DNA of 51,321 nucleotides from the NCBI GenBank assembly GCA_003153275.1, contig PLXX01000072.1, positions 1,661 through 52,981 on the forward strand. The letters run 5' to 3'. Below the pieces are notes generated by a model. It worked only from the letters and a program-made list of their open reading frames with translations. It was not told the origin of the DNA and searched no databases. Shown here in pieces: positions 2,031 through 49,760 of the stretch. The translations under genes were made by a program, and so were the position numbers. Each line of letters starts with the position of its first letter. Within the stretch, counting starts at the first letter, position 1. The DNA comes from Nitrospiraceae bacterium. GTDB lineage: Bacteria; Nitrospirota; Thermodesulfovibrionia; Thermodesulfovibrionales; UBA6898.

Positions 2031-2032
2031 AT

Positions 2033-2777: not shown

Positions 2778-2844
2778 TATAATCAATAACTGGGACAAAG
2801 AGCCACTTAACGCATCATAAAAACAACAGAGAGGAGTGATGACC

Positions 2845-3093: not shown

Positions 3094-3096
3094 AAG

Positions 3097-3150
3097 ATGC
3101 CTAAATTATCTCCTGTTACACGTTCTGAACTTATATCGAGACTATGTTGA
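3097..3150 (+). pseudogene. hicA: hicA toxin stub (17 codons)
   Basis: MPKLSPVTRSELISRLC-stop is the typical HicA N-terminus (MPKL..V..REL...L), cut off after 17 residues. It starts 3 nt after the hicB stop. Confidence 0.55.
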
Positions 3151-3293
3151 TTATGTCCATTAGTGGACTAACGGGCCTACTGTCCTTCGGGCTTGGTGAT
3201 GCTACGCTTCATTACGTTGCCCATTATACAGGTAATAGTGATGGTGAAGGAGCACGAGAGGTTTCTAAAGGACAGGGCGTATCTGAATGCTAA
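3144..3293 (+). pseudogene. Possible internal fragment of a Wzx/MOP-family flippase
   Basis: A 49-aa ORF reads MLIMSISGLTGLLSFGLGDATLHYVAHYTGNSDGEG... It resembles the loop motif (..GLG.A..KYV..Y.G.ND..) near TM2 of polysaccharide flippases. It has no flippase context on either side. Confidence 0.25.
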
Positions 3294-26277: not shown

Positions 26278-27048
26278 ATGAGCGGAGAAGAGGTAATACT
26301 GGGCTATCGTGTCTCGGTAAAATCTAAAACAGACTGCGTTTCTGAAATCACCGGATGGTTAAAAGACGGCAAAAAAAATAAATATTTTGTCTGCGCCAAC
26401 CCTCACTCTCTTGAAGTTGCCCGGCAAGACGGTCTATTCCGCAACGCAATCAAGGCAGCTGACCTTATCGTGCCCGACGGAATAGGGATTGTGATCGCCT
26501 CCAGGATACTGGGTGGGAATATCAGACGGAGGGTAACCGGCAGTGATATCTTCCTGGGATTGAGCGAAAAGTTGAACGATGAAAAAAAATACACTTATTT
26601 CTTCCTCGGCTCAACAAAAGAAAATCTCCAGAAGATAAGAAATAAGATGGGGACAGATTTTCCGGGCATTAAGGTTGCAGGCACATATTCTCCGCCTTTC
26701 AAAACGGATTTCAGTGAAGAAGATAATCGACTTATGGTAGAGGCTGTCAGCCGTTCTCATCCCGATGTGCTCTGGGTCGGGCTTACTGCCCCCAAGCAGG
26801 AAAAGTGGATATATCAAAACAGAGGCAGACTGGATGTGAAATTCATAGGAGCAATCGGGGCCGTTTTTGATTTTTATACCGGCAATGTTAAAAGGTCGCA
26901 TCCTTTTTTTCAAAAAATAGGGCTTGAATGGCTGCCACGCCTGCTCAGTGAGCCGCGTCGTCTCTGGAGGCGCAACTTTATCTCGAACCCATCTTTTGTG
27001 ATCAGGGTGATATCAAGCAGGATTGCAGGGAAAAAAAAGAGTAGATGA
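26278..27048 (+). CDS. WecB/TagA/CpsF-family (GT26) glycosyltransferase
   Basis: ANPHSLEVARQD...ADLIVPDGIGIVIASRILG...VTGSDIF...LWVGLTAPKQEKW. I used the ATG at 26278, one base after the preceding gene's stop, rather than the TTG at 26257. Confidence 0.85.
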   Translation: MSGEEVILGYRVSVKSKTDCVSEITGWLKDGKKNKYFVCANPHSLEVARQDGLFRNAIKAADLIVPDGIGIVIASRILGGNIRRRVTGSDIFLGLSEKLNDEKKYTYFFLGSTKENLQKIRNKMGTDFPGIKVAGTYSPPFKTDFSEEDNRLMVEAVSRSHPDVLWVGLTAPKQEKWIYQNRGRLDVKFIGAIGAVFDFYTGNVKRSHPFFQKIGLEWLPRLLSEPRRLWRRNFISNPSFVIRVISSRIAGKKKSR

Positions 27049-28175
27049 AAAGTCTTTTCTTGAAGCTGATCGGTCCGGCACCGATCAAAGAGCCGGTGCA
27101 TGTCACAAGAGACGCCCTCTCGGAGATCAGGAAACTCGCCGAAAGGCGGGGTCTGTTAATGCTATTGCACAAACGCCTGACCGAGAACATTGCTGTTATA
27201 GAACCGAAGGAAGAGGTGGAGAGGTTCATCGAGGAAACGAGGCCGCTTCGGTACGTGACAATAGCCCGGTCAATAAGACAGGAAAACGTCGGAAAGGAAA
27301 TCTTGCGGCTCCTCGGCCGTGCAGGAATCCCTGCCGTTGTTTTAAAAGGGAACTCTATTGCGCGTAATCTCTATGGTGACCCATATTGCCGGTCGTCGTC
27401 TGATATCGATCTTCTTATAAGAAGATCTGATGTGATCCCTGCTGATGCCGCCCTCCGCGGCATCGGGTGTCTCAGGGACGATCCACTCCCTCTTATGTTC
27501 TGGCTCAACAGGGTCCATCATGCGGTCTACGTTTATCCGGATACACGCGACCTGATCGAGATCCACTGGGATTTCGGCATACCCTCTTATTTCAGGCTTG
27601 CTTCCGACGATATTTGGGCCGAGGTGGTTTTTGACGCATCGGGAAATCCGGGGTTTTCGATGGAAATGGATGTCATCCAACTGCTCATCCATCATCATAT
27701 GCACGCCTTCAGGGAACTGAAGATCCTTGTTGACATTCTCTGGGCTTTGCATAAATATGATAGTAGGATGGACTGGAACGCTTTTGCAGGCCGTCTCAGG
27801 AAGCTCGGACTTCTTAAGACCGCTATGATCACATTGGCCCAGATAAACAGTGTCTGGAAAGACATCGGGGGTGAGATGGATTGTATCAAAACACTGGGGC
27901 AGGCATTCAGATATATGAGATGCGGCCTGCCGGGGTATTTACTGTCTTATTTCAGAATGGAGATAGAGAGAGAGTACTGTTTCCAATCCAACGGGGACAA
28001 ATTTATGTCCAGATTTGCCCTGGACGGCGCGGCAACGGTATGTCTGTCGTTCCTGAAGTCATTCTTCCCCATGCCTGACGATATAAAGGCGCTTTACAGA
28101 GATAGAAGGGGTTGGGCCCTGCCGTTCAATTACTCCCGGTTTATAACCTGGCGGTTGACGGAGTGGAGAAAGTGA
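27045..28175 (+). CDS. Uncharacterised nucleotidyltransferase-family protein (NTP_transf_5-like)
   Basis: IPAVVLKGNSIARNLYGDPYCRSSSDIDLLIRRSD and IEIHWDF fit the PF14907-type pattern as I recall it. ATGA overlap with the upstream gene. Confidence 0.6.
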   Translation: MKSLFLKLIGPAPIKEPVHVTRDALSEIRKLAERRGLLMLLHKRLTENIAVIEPKEEVERFIEETRPLRYVTIARSIRQENVGKEILRLLGRAGIPAVVLKGNSIARNLYGDPYCRSSSDIDLLIRRSDVIPADAALRGIGCLRDDPLPLMFWLNRVHHAVYVYPDTRDLIEIHWDFGIPSYFRLASDDIWAEVVFDASGNPGFSMEMDVIQLLIHHHMHAFRELKILVDILWALHKYDSRMDWNAFAGRLRKLGLLKTAMITLAQINSVWKDIGGEMDCIKTLGQAFRYMRCGLPGYLLSYFRMEIEREYCFQSNGDKFMSRFALDGAATVCLSFLKSFFPMPDDIKALYRDRRGWALPFNYSRFITWRLTEWRK

Positions 28176-34571: not shown

Positions 34572-35924
34572 ATGAATCACATTAACTGCTTTAAGGCATA
34601 CGACATTCGCGGCAGGATCCCTGATGAACTGAACGAGGAGATCGTTTATCGCATCGGGCGGGCCTATGCGGAGTTTCTGAAACCTTCGAAAGTGATCATC
34701 GGCCGGGATGTGCGCCTTAGCAGCGATGCCTTCAGCTCATCACTTGCCAGGGGACTTACGGACGCAGGAGTGGATGTATATGACATCGGGCTCTGTGGCA
34801 CGGAGGAGGTCTATTTCTCAACCTTTCATAACAACATGGACGGCGGGATTATGGTGACAGCAAGCCATAACCCAATAGACTATAACGGCATGAAACTCGT
34901 ACGTGAGGGGTCGAAGCCTATCAGTGGTGACACAGGCCTGTTCACAATAAGAAAGCTTGCTGAGGAAAACTGCTTTACTGATTCAGCAACAAAAGGGAAG
35001 ATAACTCCGCTTGATGACAGGGATGCATATATAAGGCACCTGCTTGGGTATATCGACGCTCTCTCTCTTAAACCTCTTAAGGTGGTAGTCAATGCAGGCA
35101 ATGGCTGTGCAGGTCCTGTCATCGATCTTCTCGAAAAACATCTCCCCTTTGAGTTCATAAGAATCAACCATAAGTCGGACGGGACATTCCCGAACGGAAT
35201 ACCGAACCCGCTTCTGCCTGAAAACAGGGCAGCGACAATAAAGGCAGTTCTTGCCCATGACGCAGACTTCGGGATAGCCTGGGACGGAGACTTTGACCGC
35301 TGTTTTCTCTTCGATGAAAAGGGAAGTTTTATTGAAGGCTATTACATTGTGGGGCTGCTCGCATCAGCTATCCTGATCAACAACCCCGGGGCAAGGATCA
35401 TTCATGATCCGCGCCTCACCTGGAACACCATCGACCTCGTCAGGCAGGCGGGCGGCATACCCGTGCAAAGCAAGACAGGGCATGCATTTATCAAGGAACG
35501 GATGAGGGTAGAAGACGCCGTCTACGGCGGTGAGATGAGCGCCCATCACTATTTTAGGGATTTTGCCTACTGCGACAGTGGTATGATACCGTGGCTTTTG
35601 ATCGCAGAGATTATGTCAGTATCGGGAAAGCCCCTTTCCGCTCTGCTCGGGGAGCGCATGCAGCTCTTCCCGGCAAGCGGCGAGATCAACAGGAGGCTGA
35701 TAGATCCATCCGCTGCCATCCGTCGTATCGAAGACCGGTATCAGAAAGGGTCCCTGATCATAGACCGCACTGACGGCCTGAGTATTGAGTTCCCCACCTG
35801 GCGATTTAACCTCAGGAGTTCGAACACCGAGCCGGTCGTCAGGCTGAACGTTGAGTCCCGCGGAGATGATCAGCTGATGCAGGCTAAAACTGCTGAGATT
35901 CTTTCCCTTCTTGATAATTTTTGA
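34572..35924 (+). CDS. manB: Phosphomannomutase/phosphoglucomutase
   Basis: [28 protein letters not shown] (phosphoserine loop), [22 protein letters not shown] used the ATG at 34572 rather than the TTG at 34566. Confidence 0.93.
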
Positions 35925-37728
35925 TCGTATCGCCTGATAATACTCGTTTTTCGATCAGCAGCACCTTGTCTGCGATCTCCAGCAGTGTTGTATCATGCGA
36001 GATGAGGAAGGTGGTCTTATCTGCTGCCAGTCTTTTGATCGACTCCTTGATCAGCTCTTCAGAGGCTGAATCCAGTGCAGAGGTCGGCTCGTCAAGTACA
36101 AGGACCGGAGCATTCCTGATGAACGCCCTTGCAATCGAGATCCTCTGACGCTGGCCTGCAGACAGTTTGAGTCCCCGTTCGCCGATGATGGCGTCATAGC
36201 CGCCAAGTAACTGTATGATCTCGTTATGGACATTGGCCATCCGCGCCGCACGTTTCACATCATCCCTTGATGCCGCGGGGTTGCCATACCGGATATTCTT
36301 TTCGATCGTGTCATTGAAGAGAAAGACCTCTTGGGACACCACCGCGATCTGCTGTCTGAGCCACTGAGTATCGAGATCCTGCAGGTTGCGGCCGTCAAGC
36401 AGGATCATGCCCGTCTCCGGCTGATAAAACTTCAGCAGAAGGTTTATCAGAGTGGTCTTTCCAGACCCGCTGGGCCCTGAAAGCCCTATCACCTCCCCGG
36501 GAGCTGCAGAAAAACTGATGTTGTCAAGAATCACCTGTCCCGGTGTATACGAGAAGGAAACGTTTTTGAACCTGACGGCTCCTTCGACCTTCGTCGGCTT
36601 CAATAAGGCGGCAGTGCGCCCTGTCTGTATGAACTCGTGGTCGAGCAGAAAAAGCTCCCGGATCCTCGCGAGGGAGGCGAAGGACGGCTGGAGCATCAGC
36701 TGATACATTAAAAGGCTGTGGACTGCACCTGATATGAAGTACATATACGACGTAAAGGCAACATAGTCCCCAATGCTCATACTGCCCTTCCTGAGCTCAT
36801 CAGCTCCGATCCAGATCACCACAATCATGGATATGAAGCGTGCGCTGCTGACCGCATACCCGGAGAGCAGAGAGAGGATCATGCCCTTTATCCGGGTGTT
36901 CAGGGCAGTCCGTATTCTGCCGGAAGCCTTTTGTACCTCGCCGGCTTCGTCTGCATGGGTTTTGACTGTTTCGATACCCGAGAGTGTCTCCTGGATGCCA
37001 GCCTCAACCTGTGCGCTGGTTTCGCGTTCTGCATAGCTTATGCTCATATATCTGCGGGAGAAGAAATGATTGATGAACATAAACAGCGGCAGGATCAGGA
37101 GGAAGATAACGGTCAGCTTGACGCTCAGCAGAAACGCCAGCGCCATCCCGAAGATGAGGTAGGCCCCCTGTGTGATAACCTGAGAAAGGCTGTCTGAAAA
37201 GAGCGTCTGGAGTGCCTCGATGTCATCGGAGAGCCTGGCTGTCAGATAACCAGTCTCCTTCCCGCGGAAGAAGATGAGCGGGAACCTCAGGACATGTTCG
37301 AAGAGGGAGGTGCGGAGGTTATAGGTTATCTCTTGCTGGAACCGTATCATCAGGATTCCCTGGATGATGCCGGCGCCGCCGATGAATGCGCCGCCGATCA
37401 GCAGGGCTGTTATGAGAAACCGCACTGAGCTGAGCAGGTTTTTTGCCTGGCCGGCATAATGGCTGAGGCCGATTGTCGACATCAAGGCATCGACCTGGCC
37501 GAAACCAGTCTTCAGGATGACAAAGTCTATCAGGAATTTGCTGCTGAGCGGCATCAGCGAATTGATGCCCGAGACCGCTAGGGCCAGGACAAGGCTTATC
37601 AGGCCCGTCTGCCAGATCGGCCGTACGAAGCGGAAGAAAAAAGGAAGGTCCCCCAGGCTGAAGTCTGTCCAGGCAGGAGCAGCACCCTGTGTGCTGAAGA
37701 TCTCTTTTATCTGATCAAGTCGTATCAT
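35884..37728 (-). CDS. MsbA/PglK-type ABC exporter (fused 6-TM permease plus ATPase)
   Basis: Walker [10 protein letters not shown], signature LSAGQRQR, Walker [14 protein letters not shown]-loop ISHD. There is an N-terminal 6-TM domain and no C39 peptidase domain. The 3' end overlaps manB by 41 nt (convergent). Confidence 0.9.
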
Positions 37729-37785
37729 TATCGAAGCATGGTTGAATCAAGTTTGAAGGGCGCGTGCCCTGTCCTCGTCCGGCTG

Positions 37786-38343
37786 TCAATCCTTGAGGTT
37801 CTTCTCGACAAACTGCGCCAGGACCTCATGTATCTTGACCGGCGGTGAGACGCCAAAATAGTGGTCTATGATCATATGCGCCAGTTCATGGGCCAGCACC
37901 CCGAGCCGGACATCACTCACGGATACATAGATGGTCTTCTCTTTGGGGGCATAGAATGAGATGAAATCGACGTTTCTGTTATAGCGGGCTTTGTATACCT
38001 TCTGGACCTCGGTGTCTGAGGACAGCAGTACGATCCTGACCTTCGCATCTTTGGGATACATGTCCAGCACGACCTCGACGCGTTCGACGAGCACATCCAT
38101 CTTATTCCTGATCTCATCGTCCGAGGTGATGCTCCTCATATTGCGCATCAGGTATGAGAGGCTGCCGAGTGAAATCTCCTTATTAAACGTCCGGAGCAGG
38201 TCCTCTCTTTCGTACACAAGAGTGGCGTAGCGGGAGGTCAGTTCAAAACCGTGAGAGACGGATGCTGAGATGAAAAATATTAAAGCTATAATGGCAGCTC
38301 TTACGATACATCTTTCCAAGCATCTTTCCACATTTAGACGCAT
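37786..38343 (-). CDS. Exported or membrane-anchored HExxH-motif protein (putative zinc metallopeptidase-like)
   Basis: N-terminal hydrophobic segment (AAIIALIFFISASV) and GVLAHELAHMIIDHYFG. I recognise no closer family. Confidence 0.5.
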   Translation of the reverse strand: MRLNVERCLERCIVRAAIIALIFFISASVSHGFELTSRYATLVYEREDLLRTFNKEISLGSLSYLMRNMRSITSDDEIRNKMDVLVERVEVVLDMYPKDAKVRIVLLSSDTEVQKVYKARYNRNVDFISFYAPKEKTIYVSVSDVRLGVLAHELAHMIIDHYFGVSPPVKIHEVLAQFVEKNLKD

Positions 38344-38345
38344 AG

Positions 38346-38939
38346 CTATTGGTCATGCGTGAGCTTGTAATTCCTGAGTCTTAGGAGCTGTTTTTCTGAG
38401 AGTTCAGAGGCCTCGGACAGGGCATGGCGGATCTCTTCAGGATCTGCAGACCCCTCGGCCCGGGCCAGATTGTTCCTGATGGCTTCTGTTGTTTCAATAA
38501 ACTGTCGCGTGTCCGCAGATATCTTTGCATTGTACTGATTGAAGAGCGTGGCAACTTCCTTCGCCTCGTCATTGGTCCGGAGTCTTATGACGAACGAATG
38601 GTCTCCGATGAGCATCCCTTCAAGCGTTTTCTCAAACCGGTAAAGCGGCCCGGCAAGGCGGTGCGTGACAAACAGCGCGAGGACAACAATAAAAAAGCCG
38701 CCAGTGAGAAGAAATATCCAGTTCGCACGCAACAGCTCCTTCACCAGCACAAACGGTGTTTTCCCGAGATTCAGGCTGTTATCTTTGTAGGTAATGGTCA
38801 TGGAGTCAGCGGTCAGCATACTGAAGATGGCGGTGAAGAGGAGGCACGCGAAGAGCACGGCCACGAAGATCGTAAAGATATACTGCCCCTGCAGGTCTTT
38901 CTTTATAAAGTAGTTCCGGCGTCTCCAGTTTCTCCCCAT
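38346..38939 (-). CDS. Two-TM membrane protein with a HAMP domain and no recognisable output domain
   Basis: RRRNYFIKKDLQGQY then TM1, a ~40-aa loop, TM2, then HRLAGPLYRFEKTLEGMLIGD...NDEAKEVATLFN (HAMP-like) and a helical tail. Confidence 0.6.
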   Translation of the reverse strand: MGRNWRRRNYFIKKDLQGQYIFTIFVAVLFACLLFTAIFSMLTADSMTITYKDNSLNLGKTPFVLVKELLRANWIFLLTGGFFIVVLALFVTHRLAGPLYRFEKTLEGMLIGDHSFVIRLRTNDEAKEVATLFNQYNAKISADTRQFIETTEAIRNNLARAEGSADPEEIRHALSEASELSEKQLLRLRNYKLTHDQ

Positions 38940-38951
38940 AATACCCCTTGG

Positions 38952-39698
38952 TCAGTCCTCTTTCACGAGATTCCTGATTGTTGCTTTTGCCCTGAGGTCG
39001 GTCATCCACTGCTCTATCGCCTGCTTTTTCCTCTGCTGCGTGAGGATGAGCCTGACTGTTTCCTTGTTCAGTGTGGCTGACATATTATCCTGCCGCAGTT
39101 CTGTTTTATCGAGGCGAACGACCAGATACGCTTTTCCCGCCCTGAACGGGCTGGTGCTTTCTCCCTCGGTCAGTGCAAAGACTTTTTCCCTCATGTCTTC
39201 AGAGAGGTCCTGATAGCAGACAATCTTTGTCTCCTTTTCGAGAAAACGGCCGGCTGCGGCAGCGACTTCGTCCGTCGCGCTCGATATGGTCAGGTGAAGT
39301 TGTTTTGTCTGCAGGTCTCTATAGCGTTCAATATCGCGATCACTTACTTCGACCGGCAGTTTCGCAAATTTCCTGTCCATGAGAAGCTTGATCAGGGACT
39401 GCTCGTAGAAGTTCTGAATCGAGAGGCGAAAGTCTTCATTCTTGTCAATACCCTCCTGCTGCGCCTCTTGGATCATCAGTTCCTTCATAATCAGTGCATT
39501 GATGAAATCAGTCTTGCTGGAAATCTGAGTCGATCCGGATGCGTAGAGCCTTTTGAACTCATCCGTGGATACTATCTTTTTATTGATGATCAGGGCGGCA
39601 TCCTTTTCCGGTCGGGAAGATTTCCCCGCGGTAATCTGGTACCCGACGACTGCGGTTACCAGCGACACAATGAGGATAATATAATAGATATATTTCAT
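38952..39698 (-). CDS. SurA/PrsA-like periplasmic chaperone or PPIase-like protein (EpsD-family-like)
   Basis: N-terminal anchor (IYYIILIVSLVTAVV). SurA_N-like IINKKIVSTDEFKRLY...NALIMKELMIQEAQQEGIDKNEDF. A degenerate parvulin-like C-terminal half (...SPFRAGKAYLVVRL). Confidence 0.55.
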   Translation of the reverse strand: MKYIYYIILIVSLVTAVVGYQITAGKSSRPEKDAALIINKKIVSTDEFKRLYASGSTQISSKTDFINALIMKELMIQEAQQEGIDKNEDFRLSIQNFYEQSLIKLLMDRKFAKLPVEVSDRDIERYRDLQTKQLHLTISSATDEVAAAAGRFLEKETKIVCYQDLSEDMREKVFALTEGESTSPFRAGKAYLVVRLDKTELRQDNMSATLNKETVRLILTQQRKKQAIEQWMTDLRAKATIRNLVKED

Positions 39699-39725
39699 GC
39701 GATAGTGTATGGGCCTGCTGTTGAA

Positions 39726-39754
39726 AGTATATCAGAGGCAGGGGAAAAAGACAA
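39726..39754 (-). promoter_or_regulatory. Candidate sigma70 promoter of the minus-strand four-gene operon
   Basis: On the minus strand: TTGTCT, 17-nt spacer, TATACT. It lies ~28 nt upstream of the ATG at 39698, so the leader is short and no clear SD is seen. Confidence 0.35.
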
Positions 39755-39826
39755 AGCTAGGGAGTGATGCCGATCGGAAAACTGACCCGCACACTGACCG
39801 GATTTACCGGAGGTCTATAACAAAAT

Positions 39827-39856
39827 TTGGTATTGCCTATAAGTAGTTATTATGAT
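39827..39856 (+). promoter_or_regulatory. Candidate sigma70 promoter of the export operon
   Basis: TTGGTA (39827-39832), 18-nt spacer, TATGAT (39851-39856). Two ACTGACC direct repeats lie upstream (39781-39787 and 39793-39799). Confidence 0.3.
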
Positions 39857-39907
39857 ATACTAACATTAGGAGAATAAAAGATTTTATATTAACTTGAAAG
39901 GGATTAA

Positions 39908-40399
39908 ATGGGAAGGTTTTGGGTAATATTTTCAGCCTTAATTTTTGCCGGTGCTCTGTTTATGGCTTTGGAGCTTACAGCGCAAGGTGCTGATGTCAAG
40001 ACGGTTATAACACAGCAGCTTTCGTTGTCACAGGATATCTGCTCTGCCGTAAAGACCTGCATCAGTGAAGGGAATAATACCAAGGAGACCGTAAAAATTG
40101 CGATCAGCATGGGACATGGGGCCTGTTACTGTCAGGTTATCAAGTGCTCGCTTGATGTAGGCGCCAGCCTTGAGCAGATAATTTTCGGAGCCATAGAGGC
40201 AGGGATCTCTTCAGATGTCATATCTCGTTGCGCAGTTGATGCAGGTGCACGGCCGGCTGATGTTGCCAGGGTTCTTGGGCGCGGCGATGCTCCTGGCCTC
40301 GGCTATTCTGATCCGCCTGTCACCGGAGTCACCCCCGTCCCGACGGGTTTTAATAACAACAGTACGCCCAAAGTGTTCATCAGTCCGTCGAGCTTTTGA
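39908..40399 (+). CDS. Small secreted Cys-rich protein of unknown function with three internal ~27-aa repeats and a Pro/Thr/Ser-rich tail
   Basis: Signal-peptide-like MGRFWVIFSALIFAGALFMALELTAQG. Repeats: ICSAVKTCISEGNNTKETVKIAISMG, CYCQVIKCSLDVGASLEQIIFGAIEAG and ISSDVISRCAVDAGARPADVARVL. Tail: PPVTGVTPVPTGFNNNSTPKVFISPSSF. Confidence 0.5.
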   Translation: MGRFWVIFSALIFAGALFMALELTAQGADVKTVITQQLSLSQDICSAVKTCISEGNNTKETVKIAISMGHGACYCQVIKCSLDVGASLEQIIFGAIEAGISSDVISRCAVDAGARPADVARVLGRGDAPGLGYSDPPVTGVTPVPTGFNNNSTPKVFISPSSF

Positions 40400-40422
40400 T
40401 ATCATCTGTCATCCATCACGAC

Positions 40423-41823
40423 ATGATGAGTGAACGATTCTATGCATTTCTTATAGCGGCAATAGTTGTAGCTATTTCGTGTTCTTCTGCGTATGCTGAG
40501 CAGGCTCCGGGACCGAAGGACGGTGATAGTACTGCACTAACAGCGAGCCAGCCTGTAGCAGCGGAAGAACAGCCTGCTGCCGTAAAGCTCTCAAACGAAG
40601 AGCCGGCCCCCTCAGGAAGCAGCAAGACCTCCTCTGATATTCTTGGAAAAGTGAGGAGTGGATACGTACATCCTTTCATATCTATTACTGAATCTTTCAA
40701 TGACAATATCTTTTACACCCCGGATAACAAAATATCAGATTTTGATACGCTTCTCTCCCCTGGCATCTGGATAGCCGTGCCGCGACTCAAAGAGAGGGAG
40801 GTCCCTGCCATCGAGACAGCAACCATGACTCCCGGCGGTCTCGCCATGAGCAGCTTTCCGACCAAATACCCCGGCAGCTACCAGACCTATCTGCTCTACA
40901 GGGCTGACATCGAGAGATATTTGAGGAACTCTTCGGAAAATACTACGAGTCATACCCTTGAAGGCGCGTTTCAGTATAACTTTAGGGGGGGGCTGTCGGT
41001 TGATGTTGATGACCAGTTCCTGAAGTCACACAACCCCAGAGCGACCAGCGAGTTTTCTGAACTCGACAAGTTTCAGTCGAATTACTTCAGCACGGTGCTC
41101 AGATATGAGTTAGGGGACAGAACTCTTCTGAGACTTGATTATGGACACTACGGCATTCAGTATACATCAGTGGACAACGACTTCAGAGACCGTGCCGACA
41201 ATGCTGTCGCTGCCTATATTTTTTATAAACTGAGGTCAAGGCTTGCGGTCTTCATTGAGTATGACTATATCAGGGTGCGATATGAACAAGATGTCTTATC
41301 AGACAGCACGGAACATCATGTGTTTGCAGGAGTCCGCTGGGACATCACCGCGAGGTCGAAGGGTATGGTGAAGGTAGGCTACGGCATAAAGGACTTTGAA
41401 AACCCGGCGCTGGCTAATCACGGCGATTTAATTTTAGAGGCACAGTTTGACCACCAGTTTACGCCGAAGAGATCTGTTCAGCTGACCGCATCACGGAAGA
41501 CGAATGAGACAGACATTGCAGGCACGGACTTCATCATCTCCGACAAGTTACGGGCTGCCTATACACAGCGGCTTGCCACTAAAATCACCGGTACAGTGGA
41601 CCTGTCATATACGGATGACGAATACCAGGATGTGATTACGATCGGGAGCGAGACAAATAAACTGAGGAACAAGTATTACAATGCAGGGGCTGCCTTGCGG
41701 TATGACTTCAGGGATTGGCTGAAGTTCGATGCCGGGTTAACGTACTCAAAGAGGGTCTCGAACTTCTCAGATTTTGATTATGTGAACAAAACTATATTTA
41801 TAAGGCTTACGGCAACTCTTTAA
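40423..41823 (+). CDS. Outer-membrane beta-barrel protein associated with polysaccharide export (BBP2/EpsL-like)
   Basis: Signal peptide MMSERFYAFLIAAIVVAISCSSAYA and an Ala/Pro/Glu-rich linker. It continues with ~380 aa of alternating beta-strand patterns with aromatic girdle residues (YRADIERY, LRYELGD, LRLDYGHY, AALRYDF, GLTYSKR). Confidence 0.65.
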   Translation: MMSERFYAFLIAAIVVAISCSSAYAEQAPGPKDGDSTALTASQPVAAEEQPAAVKLSNEEPAPSGSSKTSSDILGKVRSGYVHPFISITESFNDNIFYTPDNKISDFDTLLSPGIWIAVPRLKEREVPAIETATMTPGGLAMSSFPTKYPGSYQTYLLYRADIERYLRNSSENTTSHTLEGAFQYNFRGGLSVDVDDQFLKSHNPRATSEFSELDKFQSNYFSTVLRYELGDRTLLRLDYGHYGIQYTSVDNDFRDRADNAVAAYIFYKLRSRLAVFIEYDYIRVRYEQDVLSDSTEHHVFAGVRWDITARSKGMVKVGYGIKDFENPALANHGDLILEAQFDHQFTPKRSVQLTASRKTNETDIAGTDFIISDKLRAAYTQRLATKITGTVDLSYTDDEYQDVITIGSETNKLRNKYYNAGAALRYDFRDWLKFDAGLTYSKRVSNFSDFDYVNKTIFIRLTATL

Positions 41824-41904: not shown

Positions 41905-42717
41905 ATGAATAAAATCACTTTCTTTTTAGTTATTATAATCTGCGTGTGCATATGCTCCGGCAGTGTTGGATATGCTGCCTCGAGTCCGGATTATATTGTT
42001 GGCGACGGCGATCTTCTGAGGATCACTGTATATGATAACGCCGATCTCCTGACGATTGTCCGGGTCGGTGGGGAGGGGACCATTCTCTTCCCGCTCATCG
42101 GACAGGTGAAGGTTGACGGCTTGTCGGTGACCTCAGTTGCATCGAAGATAGAGGTGATGCTCGCCCAGGGCTATATTGTTTCTCCGCATGTCTCAGTCTT
42201 CATCGAGGAATACAGGAGTCAGCGGGCCACGATCATGGGACAGGTGAACAAGCCGGGATTATATGAGCTCAAGGGGTATACTACCTTTCTGGAGGTCCTT
42301 TCCAAGGCAGGTGATCTTACCAAAGATGCCGGCGACAAGGCTTTCATAAAAAGAAAGGCCGAGTCTGCCGACAAGATGGAAAAAACTATTGTCATAGATC
42401 TGAAGCGGTTGGTTGAAAGAGGCGATACGTCACAGGACCAGCCGATTATTGATGGGGACAGCATCTATGTCACCAAGGCCGGGACCTTTTATGTGACCGG
42501 CGAGGTCAGAAAGCCTGATTCGTATAAAATTATAGAGGAAGGTACCACGGTTCTGAAGGCCATAACCATGGCGGGCGGATTCACAGATAAAGCGTCTACC
42601 GGCAGGGTGAAGATCATAAGGAAAGTCAATGGGAAAGAGGAGCTGCTCGAGCGGGTGAAACTCGATGTGCTGATACTCCCCGACGATGTAATTGTTGTTC
42701 CGGAGAGTTTTTTCTAG
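41905..42717 (+). CDS. Polysaccharide export protein (Wza/EpsE-like: Poly_export plus SLBB domains)
   Basis: Signal peptide. YIVGDGDLLRITVYDNADL...ILFPLIGQVKVDGLSVTSVASKIEVML...VSVFIEEYRSQRATIMGQVNKPGLYEL...GDSIYV. Confidence 0.88.
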   Translation: MNKITFFLVIIICVCICSGSVGYAASSPDYIVGDGDLLRITVYDNADLLTIVRVGGEGTILFPLIGQVKVDGLSVTSVASKIEVMLAQGYIVSPHVSVFIEEYRSQRATIMGQVNKPGLYELKGYTTFLEVLSKAGDLTKDAGDKAFIKRKAESADKMEKTIVIDLKRLVERGDTSQDQPIIDGDSIYVTKAGTFYVTGEVRKPDSYKIIEEGTTVLKAITMAGGFTDKASTGRVKIIRKVNGKEELLERVKLDVLILPDDVIVVPESFF

Positions 42718-42831
42718 AATATAAATGTACCGGTTGTCGTATGGTTTATTATCCCGGCCTGTCAGGGATACTTTTTTAACGAAACCAGGCAGTCGGGAAT
42801 GACTCTGAAACAGGAGAGCTTGGAGGTGATC

Positions 42832-45063
42832 ATGAACGGGCAGACGATTGAAGAGAAAGAGATACATCTCAGGGACTACCTGAGAATTATCAATAAGCGC
42901 AGGCAGATCGTCTACACTTTTTTTGCGGTCGTGTTTGTCCTGGTGGTTGTGGGGACTTTTTCCACGACTCCGATTTACAGCGCCTCGACAAGGCTCCTGA
43001 TAGAGAAGGCGGAAACGAGCAACGTCATGAACAACACTGAGTTCTATAGCTATGATGCTGAGTTTTATCCGACCCAGTACGAGCTGATTAAGAGTTCATC
43101 GGTTACCCGGAAGGTCGTGGACACGCTCGGACTAGACAAGAATTTAGACAGCTATTTTAACATCGACCCGAAGCGCCGCTCTGTTATCACCAAGATGGCA
43201 GGCGGACTGTCAACGTTCATCGCTACTGTGTTCAGGACAAAGGGACTGGAGAACCTTCGGGAAAAAGAAGACCCCGACAAAAAGGCTGACGCGATAGCAA
43301 AGACCATCAGCAGCGGGATTGTTGTGACCCCCGTGAAGAATAGCAAGATCGTCGATATCAGCTATTTTTCGCCCAACCCGGAACTGGCCTGCTCTGTTGT
43401 GAATGCTCTTGCCAGGTCCTACATCGAAGATCTGCTTGATCTTAATATGAGTTCAACAAAATATACTCTTGACTGGCTGACGAAGAAGGCTGAAGAGGAA
43501 AAAACAACTGTTGCGAAATCTGAAAAGACGCTGCAGGAATATCAGAAGAGCCAGAATTTTGTTACTCTCGAGAACAAGGAGACTATTATCCCTCAGAAGA
43601 TGGCAGAATTGAACAACAGGCTGCTAAGTGCAGAGTCAAAGAGGAGGGAGTTGGAGGCCCTCTATAAAAAGGTGCAGGAAGTAACCTCCAACCTCGGCAA
43701 CGCAGAAAACATTAGTGCGATAGCGACAGACCCCACACTGCAGAGCCTCCGGCAGCAAATCATAATGGCTGAGCAGGATGTCACCGAGCGTTCGCAGAAA
43801 CTCGGCCAGAAGCATCCGGCCCTGATACGGGCAAAGGAGGACCTCGACAGCCTGAAGATGAAGCGGGAGCAGGAAATTAAGAGGGTCATTGAGTCTATAA
43901 AAAACGAATACGAGCTTGCGGGGGCTAATGTAGCCAGTTTCAAAAAATCCCTTGCCGAGGCAAAGGGTGAGGCCCTGAACCTCAATGAAAAGGCAATGGA
44001 ATTTGGGGTTCTCAATCGGGAGGTGGAGACGAACAGGCAGCTCTATGATGTGCTGGTGAAGCGGATGAAGGAGCAGAGCATCTCCGAGAAGACACGGACT
44101 GTCAATGTCCTGATCATCGAAAAGGCCGAGGTGCCAAGTTCACCGGTAAAACCCAGAAAAGCTCAGAACATCCTGCTTGGTCTTATCCTGGGCCTGTTCG
44201 GCGGAGTCGCCATGGCATTTTTTGTCGAATACCTTGACCAGACCATTAAGTCGCCTGACGATGCTGAGGCAAAACTCGGCGTTGCAGTGCTCGGTCTGAT
44301 CCCTCTTGTTAATAGCGGGGAGCATGATGTTGATAAAATTGTCATGACGGATCCGAATTCGCTCATCGCCGAGAGCTTCAAGGCGATCAGGACCTCTCTG
44401 CTGCTTTCCTCTGCAGAGAAATCGCCTAAGCGCGTACTGATTACCAGTCCCGGACCAGGAGAGGGCAAGACGTCGATCTCGATCAACCTTGCGGCTGCGA
44501 TAGCACAAACAGGCTATTCGGTGCTACTTATCGACGCAGACCTGAGAAGGCCCCGAATCGCAAAGGTGCTGGGTCTGAGCAATACGAAAGGCCTGAGCAC
44601 GTATCTTGCGGGAGCATCTGATATGGACGTCATACAGGATGGGCCGATTACCAACCTGAGCATCATAACCTCCGGGCCAATTCCGCCGAACCCTTCAGAG
44701 CTCCTGGGGTCAAAGAGGATGGCTGAGATGATCGAGACCCTGAGCGAAAAATATGACATTGTTATCTGCGACTCACCCCCGCTGTTGTCCGTCGCTGACA
44801 CCCTCATGCTCGATAATATCCTTGATGCTGTGATTATTGTTACCAGGGGCGGAAAGACGAGCTATGAAGATGTTCGAAACGGCCTGAAATCTTTGTCTGG
44901 CCTCAAGGCGCAAGTTCTGGGAATTATCATCAACGCACTTGACATCAAGAAAAACAACTATTACTATTATCAATATAAAAATTACTACTATTCATCTGAC
45001 GAGACTTCGGACGACAAGATTTCCAGAGAGACAAAAAAGGCAGCACACAAAAAGAAAGTCTAG
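42832..45063 (+). CDS. Wzc-like polysaccharide co-polymerase fused to a BY-tyrosine autokinase
   Basis: Wzz/GumC-type N-terminus (LRDYLRIINKRRQIV plus TM), a long coiled coil and a second TM. Walker A SPGPGEGKTSISINLA, A' LLIDADLRRP, B DIVICDSPP. C-terminal Tyr cluster NNYYYYQYKNYYY. A GGAGGTG RBS lies 4 nt before the ATG at 42832. Confidence 0.9.
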   Translation: MNGQTIEEKEIHLRDYLRIINKRRQIVYTFFAVVFVLVVVGTFSTTPIYSASTRLLIEKAETSNVMNNTEFYSYDAEFYPTQYELIKSSSVTRKVVDTLGLDKNLDSYFNIDPKRRSVITKMAGGLSTFIATVFRTKGLENLREKEDPDKKADAIAKTISSGIVVTPVKNSKIVDISYFSPNPELACSVVNALARSYIEDLLDLNMSSTKYTLDWLTKKAEEEKTTVAKSEKTLQEYQKSQNFVTLENKETIIPQKMAELNNRLLSAESKRRELEALYKKVQEVTSNLGNAENISAIATDPTLQSLRQQIIMAEQDVTERSQKLGQKHPALIRAKEDLDSLKMKREQEIKRVIESIKNEYELAGANVASFKKSLAEAKGEALNLNEKAMEFGVLNREVETNRQLYDVLVKRMKEQSISEKTRTVNVLIIEKAEVPSSPVKPRKAQNILLGLILGLFGGVAMAFFVEYLDQTIKSPDDAEAKLGVAVLGLIPLVNSGEHDVDKIVMTDPNSLIAESFKAIRTSLLLSSAEKSPKRVLITSPGPGEGKTSISINLAAAIAQTGYSVLLIDADLRRPRIAKVLGLSNTKGLSTYLAGASDMDVIQDGPITNLSIITSGPIPPNPSELLGSKRMAEMIETLSEKYDIVICDSPPLLSVADTLMLDNILDAVIIVTRGGKTSYEDVRNGLKSLSGLKAQVLGIIINALDIKKNNYYYYQYKNYYYSSDETSDDKISRETKKAAHKKKV

Positions 45064-45112: not shown

Positions 45113-47473
45113 ATGTTCAAATCTCCTGCTAGGGTTGTTTTTGTTTTTCTTCTCTTTTTTTCACCGCTGGCATTCGGCACGGTCGAAACCTGGTCGCTGC
45201 TGATAATGGAAACGCTTTCGATCTTTGCACTCATATACTATCTGGCAGTGGAAAAGCGGGCTGGTCCTTTTTATCACGTGCCGGGCATTCTGCCGCTGCT
45301 CTGTATAGGCCTGTATCATCTGCTCCAGATTGTCCCTCTTCCCGCCGGTCTTGTCGCCCTGATATCGCCCGAAACATACCGGCTTCATGAGTTGACAGGG
45401 GATATCGCTAAAGTACCTGATTGGATCTCCCTGTCTGTCCGGAAAAAAGAGACTGTTTCTGAATTCTTCAGATTCGCCTCTGCGGCTGCTTTCTATGTCC
45501 TTACGGTCCAGCTCTTTTCACAGAAAGAGATGCTCAAGAGGACTATAATAACCCTTACCGCCTTTTCCGGCTTTCTTGCCTTTCTGGCCATTATGCAGTA
45601 TCTGTTCTATAACAATAAGATCTACTGGATCAGGGAGCTTACGCTCGGCGGTTTGCCGTTTGGGCCTTTTGTGAACAGGAACCATTATGCAGGCTTCATG
45701 GGGATGGTATTTCCCCTTGTTCTTGGTCTGTTCCTGTTCTATAAGCCACAGGTGTCGTATGCGTCCCTGCGGGAAAGACTGGTAGAGCTGTTCAGCAGGC
45801 GGGGAACGAATATGTATATACTCATCGGTCTGGCGTTGGTACTAATGGCTGTTTCGGTCTTCCTCAGTCTTTCGCGGAGCGGGATCGTCAGTCTTGGGCT
45901 CTCGATAACCTTTTTCGGCCTTATGCTATCTGCCGCGAAGACGGGAAGCAGGAGGGGGGTCGTTATTGTGATCATCTGTATCCTGATCCTCCTCTCGGTC
46001 GGCTGGTTTGGCTGGGAGCCGATCGTCGCGCGTTTTGAGAAAATACGCAATCCCGTGGGGAACATCGCTGACATGAGGCCGACGATCTGGAAGGACACCG
46101 TCCCGATGATCAAGGACTTCCCTGTTTTCGGGACGGGGTTCGGCACGTATATCGATGCATATACGAAATACCGGACATTGCCGGGCGAGACGATTGTTGA
46201 CCACGCACATAATGATTATCTTGAACTGCTCTCCGATGGCGGCCTGATCGGCTTTCTGCTTTTTGGCTGGTTCTTTGCTGCCGTAGGCATACGTTCCTTC
46301 AATACTTTCAGAAAGAGGAAGGAGCTCTATTCGATCTATATCTTCATCGGCAGCCTTTCGGGGATCGTCTACATGTTTTTTCACAGTGTGACGGACTTTA
46401 ACCTGCATATAGGATCAAACGGTCTTTATTTCTTCTTTCTTGCCGGTATCATGGTCTCATCAGCGCATACTAGGCTGCGGAACGGCCTTGTCCCAACGTA
46501 TCTGAAGCCTGTCGAAGGATCGCCTTCTCAGGGAGGTCTGTCAAAGGCGGTTCTGTTGCAGATTGCCCTGCTGAGTGCCCTTCTTATGGCCTGCCTGGTA
46601 TTTCATACCGGAGCTATCATAGGAAAATACTATTATTCCTCTCTGAGGGATATACGGCTTGATCAACTGCCCGATAAGAAGGACCTTCTTCTTGTGCAGG
46701 ATACCGTACAGAGGGCGATCATGTTTGACCCCCTTGAGCCGGACTACCGGCTTGCAGGCGCTGGTGTTGAGATGAAGGTGTCAGGCCCGGCAGCCTCGCA
46801 GGACGCCTACCGGCAGGTCATAGCGATGGCCCCGTTCAATGCCGGGTATGTACAGAGGCTTGGACTGGTCAGCTCAGAGCTGGGGGAGGTTGAGAGGGCG
46901 GAGAGGCTCTTGAGGCTTGGCGTAGCTCTTGACAGGAACGGCTCATCAGTACATAAGACCTATGCGTTCTGGTTGTTGGCTCATAACAGGAAGGCAGAGG
47001 GGATGGCCAATATAAAGACCGCGCTTTCTATAGACCCGAGCAGGACCAGGGAGTACATAACCCTTATGGTCCTGAACAAGCTAAGTAACAAAGAGATAGC
47101 CGCGGCCATGCCGGATCTGGTCCAGCCACATCTCACGTTTGCCGACTTTCTGTTCAAGACCGTCAACGATGAAATGGCGAATGAGGAATATCGGAGGGCC
47201 TTTGACTTTGTCAGCAATGAAAAAGATGTAAGCCAAGGTTATTTTTTCCAGGCAAGCAACTATTTCTTGCAGAAAGAGATGTATGATGATGCGATAACGA
47301 TTATGAGAAAGGGAACAGAGGCATTGCCTAATGACATAGCGCTGAGGCTTGCGTTTGGTGATATCTATGAAAAAATGGGAACGAGGCATCGGGCAGTTGA
47401 AGAGTACGAAAAGGCGCTGGTGATCGACCCGGACAATAGGGATGCACGCAGGAAAATCGATGCTGTCCGATAA
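45113..47473 (+). CDS. O-antigen ligase family (Wzy_C) membrane protein fused to C-terminal TPR repeats
   Basis: About 12 TM segments with RNHYAGFMG and DHAHNDYLELLSDGGLIGF (Wzy_C motif region). The ~300-aa soluble C-terminus has TPR-like repeats (…AVEEYEKALVIDPDNRDARRKI). Confidence 0.85.
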   Translation: MFKSPARVVFVFLLFFSPLAFGTVETWSLLIMETLSIFALIYYLAVEKRAGPFYHVPGILPLLCIGLYHLLQIVPLPAGLVALISPETYRLHELTGDIAKVPDWISLSVRKKETVSEFFRFASAAAFYVLTVQLFSQKEMLKRTIITLTAFSGFLAFLAIMQYLFYNNKIYWIRELTLGGLPFGPFVNRNHYAGFMGMVFPLVLGLFLFYKPQVSYASLRERLVELFSRRGTNMYILIGLALVLMAVSVFLSLSRSGIVSLGLSITFFGLMLSAAKTGSRRGVVIVIICILILLSVGWFGWEPIVARFEKIRNPVGNIADMRPTIWKDTVPMIKDFPVFGTGFGTYIDAYTKYRTLPGETIVDHAHNDYLELLSDGGLIGFLLFGWFFAAVGIRSFNTFRKRKELYSIYIFIGSLSGIVYMFFHSVTDFNLHIGSNGLYFFFLAGIMVSSAHTRLRNGLVPTYLKPVEGSPSQGGLSKAVLLQIALLSALLMACLVFHTGAIIGKYYYSSLRDIRLDQLPDKKDLLLVQDTVQRAIMFDPLEPDYRLAGAGVEMKVSGPAASQDAYRQVIAMAPFNAGYVQRLGLVSSELGEVERAERLLRLGVALDRNGSSVHKTYAFWLLAHNRKAEGMANIKTALSIDPSRTREYITLMVLNKLSNKEIAAAMPDLVQPHLTFADFLFKTVNDEMANEEYRRAFDFVSNEKDVSQGYFFQASNYFLQKEMYDDAITIMRKGTEALPNDIALRLAFGDIYEKMGTRHRAVEEYEKALVIDPDNRDARRKIDAVR

Positions 47474-48545: not shown

Positions 48546-49760
48546 ATGAAGCAAAGAATGGCTATTGTTTATGCGTTGTCTATCTGTTTACTTGTAGGTG
48601 TCTTGTGCAGCGGTTGTGGTCAGGGTTCGATTGCTTCGGTAACGGTAGCGCCGCTCACCGCCACTGTTCTCGTGGGCTCTACCCAGCAGTTTTTGGCAAC
48701 TGGTACCTATTCAAATAAATCGACATCTGACGTAACGGGCAGGGTGACTTGGACTTCATCTAATCCTGCGGTTGCAACGATCACCGGCGGGGGGCTTGCA
48801 ACGGGCATTACAGCAGGTAACACCATCATCACTGCCTCTGCTTCTTCCGGTGTTTCGGCGGTTGCTACGCTTATAGTGGGCCTGGCGTCGGTATTTTCTG
48901 TTGGTGCAAATCCGACCGATATCGCCATAGACGCTGCTGGTAATGCATGGGTGGCGAATAACGGCAGTAATAACGTTACCAGGTTGAGTCCGACAGGAGA
49001 GGTGCTTGGTGTCTTTGTTGTTGGTACAAATCCGACCGATATCGCCATAGATTCTGCTGGTAATGTATGGGTGGTGAACAGCGGCAGCAATAACGTTACC
49101 AAGCTGAGTCCCACGGGAGCAGTGCTCAGCGTTTTTGCTGTTGGTGCGCATCCGACTGATATCACCATAGATGCCTCGAATAACGTGTGGGTGGTGAACA
49201 GCGGCAGCAATAATGTTACTAAGCTGAGTTCCACGGGACTGTTGCTCGGTACCTTCGCTGTTGGGACCAATCCGACGCGCATAGCGATAGACGGGAAGGG
49301 TAATGCATGGGTGGTGAACAGTGGAAGCAATAACGTTACCGAGTTTAGTTCCACGGGGGTCTTTCTTGGCAACTTTGCCGTTGGCAATAACCCGCAAGGG
49401 ATAGCTGTAGATGGGGGCGGCAATGCATGGGTGTCTAATTATGCTGATGGCACAATAACGCAATTGAACCCCTCAGGGACGCTACTTGGCATCTTTGCTG
49501 CTGGCACCAATCCGCAGAGCATAGTGATAGATGGAGGGGGCAACATATGGGTTGCGAATTACGGTACCGATTCCGTTATGGAGTTGACCCCAACCGGAAT
49601 ACTTGTCGGAACGTTGATCGCAGGCAATAGTCCAACCTGTCTGGCCATTGATACTTCCGGCAATATATGGATCGCAAATAATCTGTCCGACACGGTGACA
49701 GTTCTGGCAGGCGCTGCAACGGGAAATTTTCATACATATGTTGGGCCTGTTTGGCCATGA
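48546..49760 (+). CDS. Probable lipoprotein with a Big_2 Ig-like domain and a seven-repeat NHL-type beta-propeller
   Basis: Signal peptide ending in LCSGCG (lipobox-like). Big_2: VTVAPLTATVLVGSTQQFLATGTYSN...VTWTSSNPAVATI. This is followed by 7 x 40-aa repeats of G.NP..IAID..GN.WV.N.GSNNVT.L...G...G.F. Confidence 0.85.
   Translation: MKQRMAIVYALSICLLVGVLCSGCGQGSIASVTVAPLTATVLVGSTQQFLATGTYSNKSTSDVTGRVTWTSSNPAVATITGGGLATGITAGNTIITASASSGVSAVATLIVGLASVFSVGANPTDIAIDAAGNAWVANNGSNNVTRLSPTGEVLGVFVVGTNPTDIAIDSAGNVWVVNSGSNNVTKLSPTGAVLSVFAVGAHPTDITIDASNNVWVVNSGSNNVTKLSSTGLLLGTFAVGTNPTRIAIDGKGNAWVVNSGSNNVTEFSSTGVFLGNFAVGNNPQGIAVDGGGNAWVSNYADGTITQLNPSGTLLGIFAAGTNPQSIVIDGGGNIWVANYGTDSVMELTPTGILVGTLIAGNSPTCLAIDTSGNIWIANNLSDTVTVLAGAATGNFHTYVGPVWP
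48891..49730 (+). repeat. Seven tandem 120-bp coding repeats (the NHL blades). The first four are highly similar at DNA level.
   Basis: Strings such as GGGTGGTGAACAGCGGCAGCAATAACGTTACCAAGCTGAGT recur with a 120-nt period. The long antisense ORFs at 48707-49423 and 48756-49463 are by-products. Confidence 0.85.

Follow-up and report, generated by a model that had tools for sequence, protein, structure and literature searches.

The locus described here lies in a stretch of 51,321 nucleotides (nt) from a Nitrospiraceae bacterium (GenBank assembly GCA_003153275.1, contig PLXX01000072.1, positions 1,661 to 52,981 of the forward strand), which was analysed over its full length and is referred to as the window. 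On its minus strand, four genes for predicted envelope proteins, designated A, B, C and D, stand back-to-back with a polysaccharide-export operon, the first gene of which encodes a protein of 163 amino acids (aa), small163, on the plus strand. In an earlier note, made from the sequence of the window alone, A-B-C-D was taken as one uncharacterised cassette. A survey of related loci leads to another delimitation of the unit. The conserved set very probably consists of A-B-C (the trio) and small163, usually beside an export module of the Class-3 OPX type (OPX for outer-membrane polysaccharide export), with D as a facultative addition. The features of the divergent region, in coordinates of the window, are as follows.

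39698-38952, minus strand: gene A, open reading frame (ORF) of 248 aa, predicted N-terminally anchored periplasmic PpiD/SurA/EpsD-like chaperone with a parvulin-type domain
38939-38346, minus strand: gene B, ORF of 197 aa, predicted HAMP-only transducer with two transmembrane (TM) segments
38343-37786, minus strand: gene C, ORF of 185 aa, predicted secreted or anchored periplasmic mini-zincin
37728-35884, minus strand: gene D, ORF of 614 aa, ABCB-type half-transporter (transmembrane domain plus nucleotide-binding domain, NBD)
39908-40399, plus strand: small163, ORF for a small secreted repeat protein with a signal peptide
39754-39726, minus strand: sigma-70-like promoter match TTGTCT-17-TATACT upstream of A, 9 of 12 positions plus a TG extension; a consensus match only
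39833-39861, plus strand: mirror-image promoter match for the divergent operon; a consensus match only

Coordinates, strand and spacing of the four reading frames are exactly as the earlier note gave them, with intergenic gaps of 12 nt between A and B, 2 nt between B and C and 57 nt between C and D. The promoter match that it proposed is likewise present, facing away from the mirror-image match of the divergent operon. Its view of all four products as envelope proteins agrees with hydropathy analysis, which places TM or hydrophobic segments in A, B and C and describes D as a multi-span protein. Co-transcription of A-B-C-D is plausible because the genes share one strand, the gaps are short and a sequence scan revealed no terminator-like site between them. 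An Rfam scan of positions 35500-40600, covering the divergent control region, found neither a riboswitch nor a small RNA. At the far end of the gene set, the 3' ends of D and of the convergent plus-strand gene manB overlap by 41 nt (35884-35924), and the close relative L003 shares this overlap.

Neighbourhoods of C homologues were collected from their encoding contigs, from a genome scan and from a metagenome scan; the genome scan used an unspecific HExxH pattern and gave 8 loci, and the metagenome scan used an alignment of the C-terminal part only. Loci were annotated by phmmer with the window proteins, and duplicates were removed before counting. B precedes C in 38 of the 43 loci with enough upstream DNA, with a gap of exactly 2 nt in 19 of these 38, and A precedes B in 34 of the 36 loci with enough DNA. 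The genes stand in the order A-B-C in Nitrospirota, Desulfobacterota, Nitrospinota and other metagenome-assembled genomes (MAGs). Downstream of C, 45 loci offer at least 600 nt of sequence. The next gene is small163 in 28 of them (26 convergent, 2 on the same strand), a convergent gene for a Wzy_C protein with tetratricopeptide repeats (TPR) in four, and a full-length D-type ABC transporter gene in only two, namely L005 and L003, the latter a relative of the window at 91-93%; the other 11 show no recognisable gene at this place. Since small163 is the commonest next gene and D is rare, the conserved four-gene unit is A-B-C plus small163. The proposal of a co-conserved A-B-C-D cassette thus fails in the survey, as the trio stands without D in 43 of 45 loci and D occurs without B and C in two others (L068 and L069). 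The physical tie of the set to Wza/Wzc genes does hold, with at least two export genes adjacent to the trio in 14 of the 26 loci that have at least 6 kb of flank.

Two natural fusions and two remote relatives bear on the way in which the trio may work. Protein P0326 (395 aa) joins B and C in one chain, consisting of the RR.NY.IKK motif, two TM segments, a HAMP domain (27.3 bits in Pfam), a third TM segment and then the C domain; its match to B has a BLASTP E-value of 5e-18. Protein P0285 (517 aa) combines a BlaR1-type Peptidase_M56 membrane domain with a C domain at the C-terminal extracytoplasmic sensor position. In L012 (5298-9296), from a Nitrospinota MAG, the gene after a remote trio encodes a CHASE2-adenylate/guanylate cyclase and lies on the strand of the trio; in L014 (2409-13329), from another MAG, a remote trio has a gene for a CHASE2-SpoIIE phosphatase behind it. 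The fusions and the CHASE2 neighbours suggest that B and C act together at the inner membrane, with C on the outside, and that the A-B-C module is used in signalling contexts. Taken together, they point to a device for proteolysis or sensing in the periplasm, coupled to a relay through the membrane. Upstream of the L014 trio, genes for a 1577-aa FecR-domain protein and for a protein with TPR and BBP2_2 are found, and the locus also has a Polysacc_deac_2 gene.

The earlier note described C as an anchored HExxH protein, which is borne out by a single N-terminal hydrophobic segment (hydropathy) and by HELAH at residues 152-156, a motif kept in nearly all representatives of the family. No Pfam or NCBIfam family covers the protein, and it has no sequence relation to M48/BepA or to M56. 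C has 164 close homologues of about 177 aa, and a profile search against 1.84 billion representatives retrieved 781 clusters at E<=1e-3, nearly all of them stand-alone proteins of 170-230 aa. His152, Glu153, His156 and Glu173 are invariant in 20 aligned sequences. Of about 129 representatives of full length, 126 retain HExxH and 118 have a Glu located 17 residues downstream of the second His, so that the catalytic Glu is retained in about 98% and the third-ligand Glu in about 91%; the His preceding the latter is often replaced by Ala. The AlphaFold2 model (predicted local distance difference test score, pLDDT, 89; predicted template-modelling score 0.78) comprises an N-terminal helix, which may be a signal or an anchor, a mixed alpha/beta subdomain and two C-terminal helices that bear HExxH and the Glu. 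In a Foldseek search of the PDB no match reached 1e-3 (best E-value 1.9e-3, template-modelling scores 0.3-0.45), and the top matches are all zincins, namely M9 collagenase peptidase domains, M1 aminopeptidases and YbeY. Motif and model together make C a predicted minimal zincin, with an HExxH…E signature of gluzincin type, from a family that has not been curated, and the conservation of the motif suggests that it is enzymatically active.

Protein B was previously read as a two-TM HAMP protein without an output domain. This description stands at the level of the family and of the model, with 20 of 34 aligned family members matching PF00672 (best E-value 7.7e-10); the protein of the window itself misses the Pfam HAMP domain. 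A search retrieved 62 homologues, and members of the family are about 197 aa long. The TM segments of B are predicted at residues 21-39 and 74-92 (hydropathy), and the alignment shows an invariant N-terminal RRRNYFIKK, an HRxAGP…R at the start of amphipathic sequence 1 (AS1) and an LR..DE before amphipathic sequence 2 (AS2). In the AlphaFold2 model (pLDDT 83), TM1 is followed by a beta-hairpin of about 14 residues on the periplasmic side, a helix that runs unbroken through TM2 and AS1 (61-110), a connector (111-126), AS2 from residue 127 with a helical extension, and a last helix. Foldseek returned a WalK TM-HAMP model as the best match at an E-value of 0.066 and nothing at or below 1e-3, monomeric helices being a poor query. 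Beyond HAMP, only about 50 aa of helix remain and an output domain is absent. The label of methyl-accepting chemotaxis protein (MCP) that B homologues carry in some database entries is rejected, given a length of 197 aa without an MCP signalling domain.

Protein A carries one predicted TM segment (residues 4-22, hydropathy), passes the Pfam Rotamase_2 cut-off narrowly (30.7 bits against 27) and has homologues that match SurA_N domains (SurA_N_2/3); against PDB sequences, only a weak SurA match was obtained (E-value 0.046). The earlier assignment to a membrane-anchored SurA/EpsD-like chaperone is therefore retained with regard to the anchor and the chaperone domains. Assignment to the EpsD equivalog TIGR02925 is rejected (15.7 bits against 108.9), and A is best described as a predicted PpiD/SurA/EpsD-like anchored periplasmic chaperone outside that equivalog.

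The fourth member of the conserved unit, small163, has no relative in Pfam or NCBIfam, nor in the PDB by profile search. In an alignment of 29 sequences, a signal peptide is combined with a repeat domain of about 95 aa, helical and rich in Ala and Gly, in which the Nitrospirota type has four invariant Cys residues, and with a strongly conserved tail, GLGY[ST]P…PGG…[IL]S[PS]S[SG]F, that ends at the C-terminus. Where the gene does not follow C, it heads the porin operon (the window, L003, L005, L008 and L067), and in the window its stop overlaps the start of the porin gene. L053, L055 and L056 have a variant without Cys, encoded after C and on the strand of C. The earlier note had offered, as its second hypothesis, that the four-gene cassette exports and processes a substrate, possibly the Cys-rich protein encoded at 39908. 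The link to this protein is favoured by the data, as it is the most constant neighbour of the trio; the four-gene cassette itself is not co-conserved.

Downstream of small163, the plus strand encodes the following export genes, of which the porin, Wzc, Wzy_C and CpsB products were assigned by Pfam and NCBIfam.

40396-41823, plus strand: Wzp-type outer-membrane beta-barrel porin (BBP2_2/EpsL-like), syntenic in L001-L009 and in other loci
41905-42717, plus strand: short Class-3-like OPX protein Wza, 270 aa, with Poly_export and two SLBB domains, ending in PESFF
42799-45063, plus strand: Wzc-type polysaccharide co-polymerase (PCP) with a bacterial tyrosine kinase (BY-kinase) domain (Wzz-GNVR-BY-kinase)
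45113-47473, plus strand: Wzy_C membrane protein with C-terminal TPR; its gene converges directly on C in L008-L010, L017 and L026
47492-48205, plus strand: CpsB-type PHP tyrosine phosphatase

Secretion through a Class-3 OPX protein and a Wzp porin is described for WzpB-WzaB-WzcB of Myxococcus xanthus (PMC12819527, PMC9603273, PMC9601211), in which a Ser-Phe-Phe motif docks WzaB on the WzpB porin (PMC12819527). In the window, the OPX protein is short and ends in a Phe-Phe tail, with the gene for a BBP2_2 barrel directly upstream and that for Wzc downstream. By domain content and gene order, the plus-strand neighbours of the trio are therefore assigned to a Class-3 OPX secretion module. The exopolysaccharide (EPS) system of the PEP-CTERM/exosortase type was considered and rejected, since none of the models EpsL, EpsE, EpsF, EpsG, pepcterm and PEP_O_lig_1 reaches its cut-off and Pfam and NCBIfam scans of 44 ORFs covering the window found no exosortase. 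In some relatives the Wzp-type barrel carries or follows a SPOR (peptidoglycan-binding) domain (L002 7475-8344, L005 6370-7962 and L068 1978-4815), the barrel protein of L068 measuring 945 aa. Downstream of CpsB, the window encodes a Big_2 plus NHL-repeat protein (48546-49760); in L012, a protein with Big_5 and NHL is encoded upstream of the remote trio (1214-3808), and the two may represent a recurring neighbour.

D contains PF00664 ABC_membrane (139.8 bits) and PF00005 ABC_tran (118.9 bits) in a single chain, as expected for an ABCB (type IV) transporter, and its multi-span domain has a long predicted loop between TM1 and TM2 (hydropathy). The earlier description as a full-length MsbA/PglK-type ABC exporter is upheld in its architecture, that of an ABCB half-transporter, and not in its family names. 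D scores below every NCBIfam cut-off, the best values being 361 for a TAP-like model, 356.1 for MsbA and 353 (against 780) for an MsbA-related model. MsbA is rejected at 356.1 against 602 for TIGR02203 and 292.4 against 867 for NF008381, and PglK at 160.5 bits against 1000 for NF050066, with only residues 383-594 (the NBD) aligning. A search of PDB sequences lists generic ABCB proteins, followed by Sav1866 and MsbA as the best single-domain matches, with PglK not among the best, a ranking that is uninformative. Apart from a pair at 93-100%, the homologues of D share 41-54% identity and come from Nitrospirota, Desulfobacterota, Methanocella and Dehalobacter. As homologues occur in Methanocella and Dehalobacter (41-48% identity), it can be argued that D is not specific to lipid A.

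Five bacterial orthologues of D were picked solely by similarity to D, after which their neighbourhoods were looked up. Four of them lie within about 4 kb of small163/Wzp, and the fifth is inside a SynChlorMet (SCM) cassette. In L067, A-B-C-D adjoin the export module, C and D being 13 nt apart, and a ScmD-like PqqD gene comes next. L068 has the export module, small163, an FGE-sulfatase gene and D, with B and C absent; L069 has the export module, small163, an FGE-sulfatase/OmpA gene and D, followed by ScmC-like, radical SAM (rSAM), PqqD and NTP_transf_5 genes, with the trio absent. In L071 (Ca. Sulfobium), D lies about 2.3 kb from the C gene of an inverted A-B-C/small163 set next to Wzp-Wza-Wzc. 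In L072, a deltaproteobacterial MAG, D is located inside the SCM cassette between an rSAM-SPASM gene and NTP_transf_5. Among the loci of the survey, the Scm genes of L005 converge on D, and L025 displays the gene order C, small163, D. The gap between C and D is 6-13 nt in L005 and L067. In a neighbour-joining tree of D homologues, built without reference flippases, export-linked D proteins fall on several deep branches outside the Methanocella/Dehalobacter clade; the genomic context of a Methanocella homologue was uninformative. D is thus a facultative, lineage-variable addition that has become attached to the export locus recurrently and independently of A-B-C, and it stands where this locus borders on SCM cassettes. 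Candidate substrates are a lipid-linked glycan or a modified peptide, both of which are compatible with the data. An FGE-sulfatase-domain gene recurs near the export module or D (L068 6808-7791, L069 6212-7645 as an OmpA fusion, L071 10959-11969), including both loci without B and C.

A modified peptide would be the substrate if D were the exporter of an SCM product (ScmC/D/E/F, an S26-peptidase-like protein and NTP_transf_5), the cassette having been lost or moved in this genome. In its favour, D of L072 is embedded in a cassette whose ScmC, ScmD and ScmE score above their cut-offs (278 against 125, 134 against 100 and 617 against 400) and which also contains a ScmF-like gene below cut-off, an S26-like peptidase gene and NTP_transf_5, with GT2, Wzy_C and PMT_2 genes following. 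Moreover, Scm or PqqD genes converge directly on D in L005, L067 and L069, and D carries no lipid- or glycan-specific family signal. Set against this, the window, L068 and L071 retain D next to the export module and have no SCM genes, and D always lies on the strand opposite the Scm genes; furthermore, no precursor peptide has been identified, and a literature search on SynChlorMet, ScmC and the HprK-related kinase with PqqD found no published product. On balance this role is possible for D, though on the unlikely side. SCM cassettes beside or around D-type genes were recorded in L005 (12350-19313), L069 (9928-14603) and L072 (79-9410), with ScmC, ScmD, ScmE, ScmF-like and S26 signal-peptidase-like genes, and small ORFs of 53-57 aa within them could be precursors. 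In Nitrospirota, SCM cassettes also adjoin the OPX export module. NTP_transf_5 (PF14907) is common to the glycan cluster of the window (27045-28175) and to the SCM-type cassettes that flank D (L069 13322-14449, L072 3232-4476).

The alternative role, and the first hypothesis of the earlier note, is that of a PglK/Wzk-like flippase, which would replace a missing Wzx and employ A, B and C as its periplasmic and membrane accessories. The absence on which it builds is real, as the Pfam scans of the 44 ORFs contain no MOP/Wzx-type flippase. In addition, D follows C on the same strand at 57 nt, and more closely still in L005 and L067, its orthologues recur beside the same export module in about seven lineages, and its long TM1-TM2 loop would suit a flippase. 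However, in most relatives the export module and the trio lie far from any glycan-assembly genes, so that a missing local Wzx means little and is not diagnostic of a gap to be filled. The conservation of the trio without D, and of D without B and C, speaks against A, B and C as accessories of D. For D alone, the NBD-only PglK match lends a flippase role no specific support, and D-type genes abut or sit inside SCM peptide-maturation cassettes. A flippase with accessories is accordingly judged improbable, more so than SCM export.

From about 3 to 30 kb, the window is occupied by a large region for glycan assembly, which encodes Wzm/Wzt including Wzt_C, WecG-type and WecA/MraY-type transferases, a Wzy_C protein and numerous glycosyl- and methyltransferases and contains the NTP_transf_5 gene. 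GDP-mannose and GDP-fucose genes come next at 30.9-35.9 kb, and then A-D. Within this glycan region, a second export route is encoded by a Wzm (ABC2_membrane)/Wzt (ABC_tran plus Wzt_C) transporter at 4061-6165. The stretch that follows (6172-27048) contains many glycosyltransferase genes, at least six genes with methyltransferase domains and a gene for a 389-aa Wzy_C protein (18950-20119), and the region looks like an ABC-transporter-dependent, methyl-capped O-polysaccharide pathway. Two products of the window are without a Pfam or NCBIfam family, a 303-aa protein with five predicted TM segments from inside the glycan cluster (21145-22056) and a 295-aa soluble protein encoded on the minus strand at the window end (50102-50989).

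The reading that best accommodates these observations, with a probability of roughly 55%, combines a conserved unit of the trio and small163, a facultative D and a proteolytic relay across the envelope. In this relay, C would be a periplasmic zinc metallopeptidase acting with B, which has nearly no periplasmic domain of its own and may relay the state of a periplasmic partner across the inner membrane through its HAMP domain and helix. Candidates for the cytoplasmic partner of B are Wzc/CpsB here and the CHASE2 enzymes in the remote relatives. A would hold an unfolded or tail-exposed periplasmic client, for which small163 is the best candidate, either as client or as ligand; its terminal Phe loosely recalls the Ser-Phe-Phe docking tail of Wza. 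The A-B-C device would then process a component of the secretion machine, or sense and report it. This specific mechanism, from the protease activity of C to the client, the direction of signalling and any effect on polysaccharide secretion, is proposed tentatively and is clearly less probable than the reading as a whole.

Several observations weigh against this reading. The loci come mostly from metagenome contigs, and the counts ignore kinship among them. Unrelated genes surround the trio in L022, L037-L040 and L052, with small163 still following in all but L022, and in the remote trios of L012 and L014, where C identity is down to 32-35%, CHASE2 genes take the place of Wza/Wzc; the link to export may hence be regulatory, indirect or limited to certain lineages. 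At the protein level, B of the window has no Pfam HAMP match at E<=0.01, the weak structural match of C to peptidases means that its domain could be a binding or sensor domain and not an enzyme, and the likeness between the small163 tail and the Wza tail comes down to a single terminal Phe. A search for a published description of the trio, the C family, small163 or the neighbourhood of SCM, ABC exporter and OPX genes found none.

Were the C domain a non-catalytic periplasmic sensor, B and C would form a split receptor that feeds Wzc/CpsB or second-messenger enzymes without proteolysis. The place of the C domain at the sensor position of the M56 fusion P0285, the near absence of a periplasmic domain in B and the CHASE2-cyclase and CHASE2-SpoIIE genes behind remote trios are all consistent with such a receptor. 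Retention of the catalytic Glu and of the third-ligand Glu is instead the pattern of an active enzyme, and B has no output domain, which makes a purely sensory role doubtful. Equally hard to favour is a SurA/BepA-like assembly and quality-control pair for the Wzp barrel and OPX translocon, in which A delivers the barrel, C removes stalled barrel, the role of B is confined to anchoring or regulating C, and small163 serves the porin as a structural partner without relation to the pair: A is SurA/PpiD-like, C is a predicted periplasmic zincin, the trio adjoins the BBP2_2 barrel in most long loci and L014 also carries a TPR plus BBP2_2 protein, but the quartet can lie away from the barrel gene, its tightest linkage is to small163 and not to Wzp, signalling, not housekeeping assembly, is what the CHASE2 neighbours and the two fusions (B-C and M56-C) suggest, and C is unrelated in sequence to M48/BepA.

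The proteolytic relay can also be extended to a trans-envelope control device for Class-3 OPX secretion. Here small163, docked on Wzp or Wza by its C-terminal Phe tail, would serve as plug or tether, to be cleaved or set free by C with the aid of A, and B would signal the event to the cycle of Wzc kinase and CpsB phosphatase, or to CHASE2 cyclases or phosphatases in the remote relatives. This version is quite unlikely and ranks below every reading discussed above; if true, no proteolytic checkpoint of a Wzx/Wzy-type exporter would have been described before it.

The components and the surrounding secretion system are of known kinds, and it is the accessory set that is new. In this respect the earlier note was right in calling the set uncharacterised, given that B and C belong to no curated family and no paper on the set was found. 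A tightly linked set that spans phyla would represent a new accessory or regulatory layer for the Class-3 OPX machines of Nitrospirota, Desulfobacterota and their relatives. Furthermore, it supplies two domain families that deserve curation and leads to corrections of annotation, concerning the chemotaxis label on B, the MsbA label on D and the limits of the unit. That export module, ABC exporter and SynChlorMet genes recur as neighbours offers a lead on a radical-SAM cassette for which no published product was found.

The EpsD peptidyl-prolyl isomerase of Methylobacillus-type or PEP-CTERM eps loci (TIGR02925) is likewise a small anchored SurA-N/parvulin protein near EpsL-, EpsE-, EpsF- and EpsG-like export genes, but A is far below its cut-off and the window has no exosortase or PEP-CTERM genes; a literature search on EpsD with PEP-CTERM yielded nothing relevant. 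HAMP-only receptors such as Archaeoglobus Af1503 consist of two TM helices and a HAMP domain without kinase, MCP or cyclase output, an architecture also predicted for B, which differs by its conserved N-terminal RRRNYFIKK motif and by its fixed genetic partner C. BlaR1/MecR1 (M56) and other transmembrane proteolytic signalling devices also combine a zinc-peptidase motif with a transmembrane relay, and P0285 fuses M56 to the C domain. In the window, however, the predicted zincin is periplasmic, the relay is a separate HAMP-only protein and no DNA-binding repressor partner is found in the locus.

D shares the ABCB half-transporter architecture with PglK of C. jejuni, Wzk of H. pylori and MsbA, but scores below the PglK and MsbA cut-offs, has homologues of equal similarity in archaea and Firmicutes and stands outside any lpx or pgl context. 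The SynChlorMet cassette (TIGR04248-04251) lies beside or around D orthologues in L005, L069 and L072, while the window contains no Scm genes and only NTP_transf_5. The plus-strand neighbours resemble WzpB-WzaB-WzcB of Myxococcus xanthus, whose parts recur in the window as a BBP2_2 barrel, a Poly_export/SLBB protein ending in Ser-Phe-Phe, a BY-kinase PCP and a Wzy_C protein. The chaperone, the HAMP-only protein, the mini-zincin and the small repeat protein are not met in the available part of the M. xanthus Class-3 OPX paper (PMC12819527), and A-B-C with small163 would be an addition to Class-3 OPX systems.

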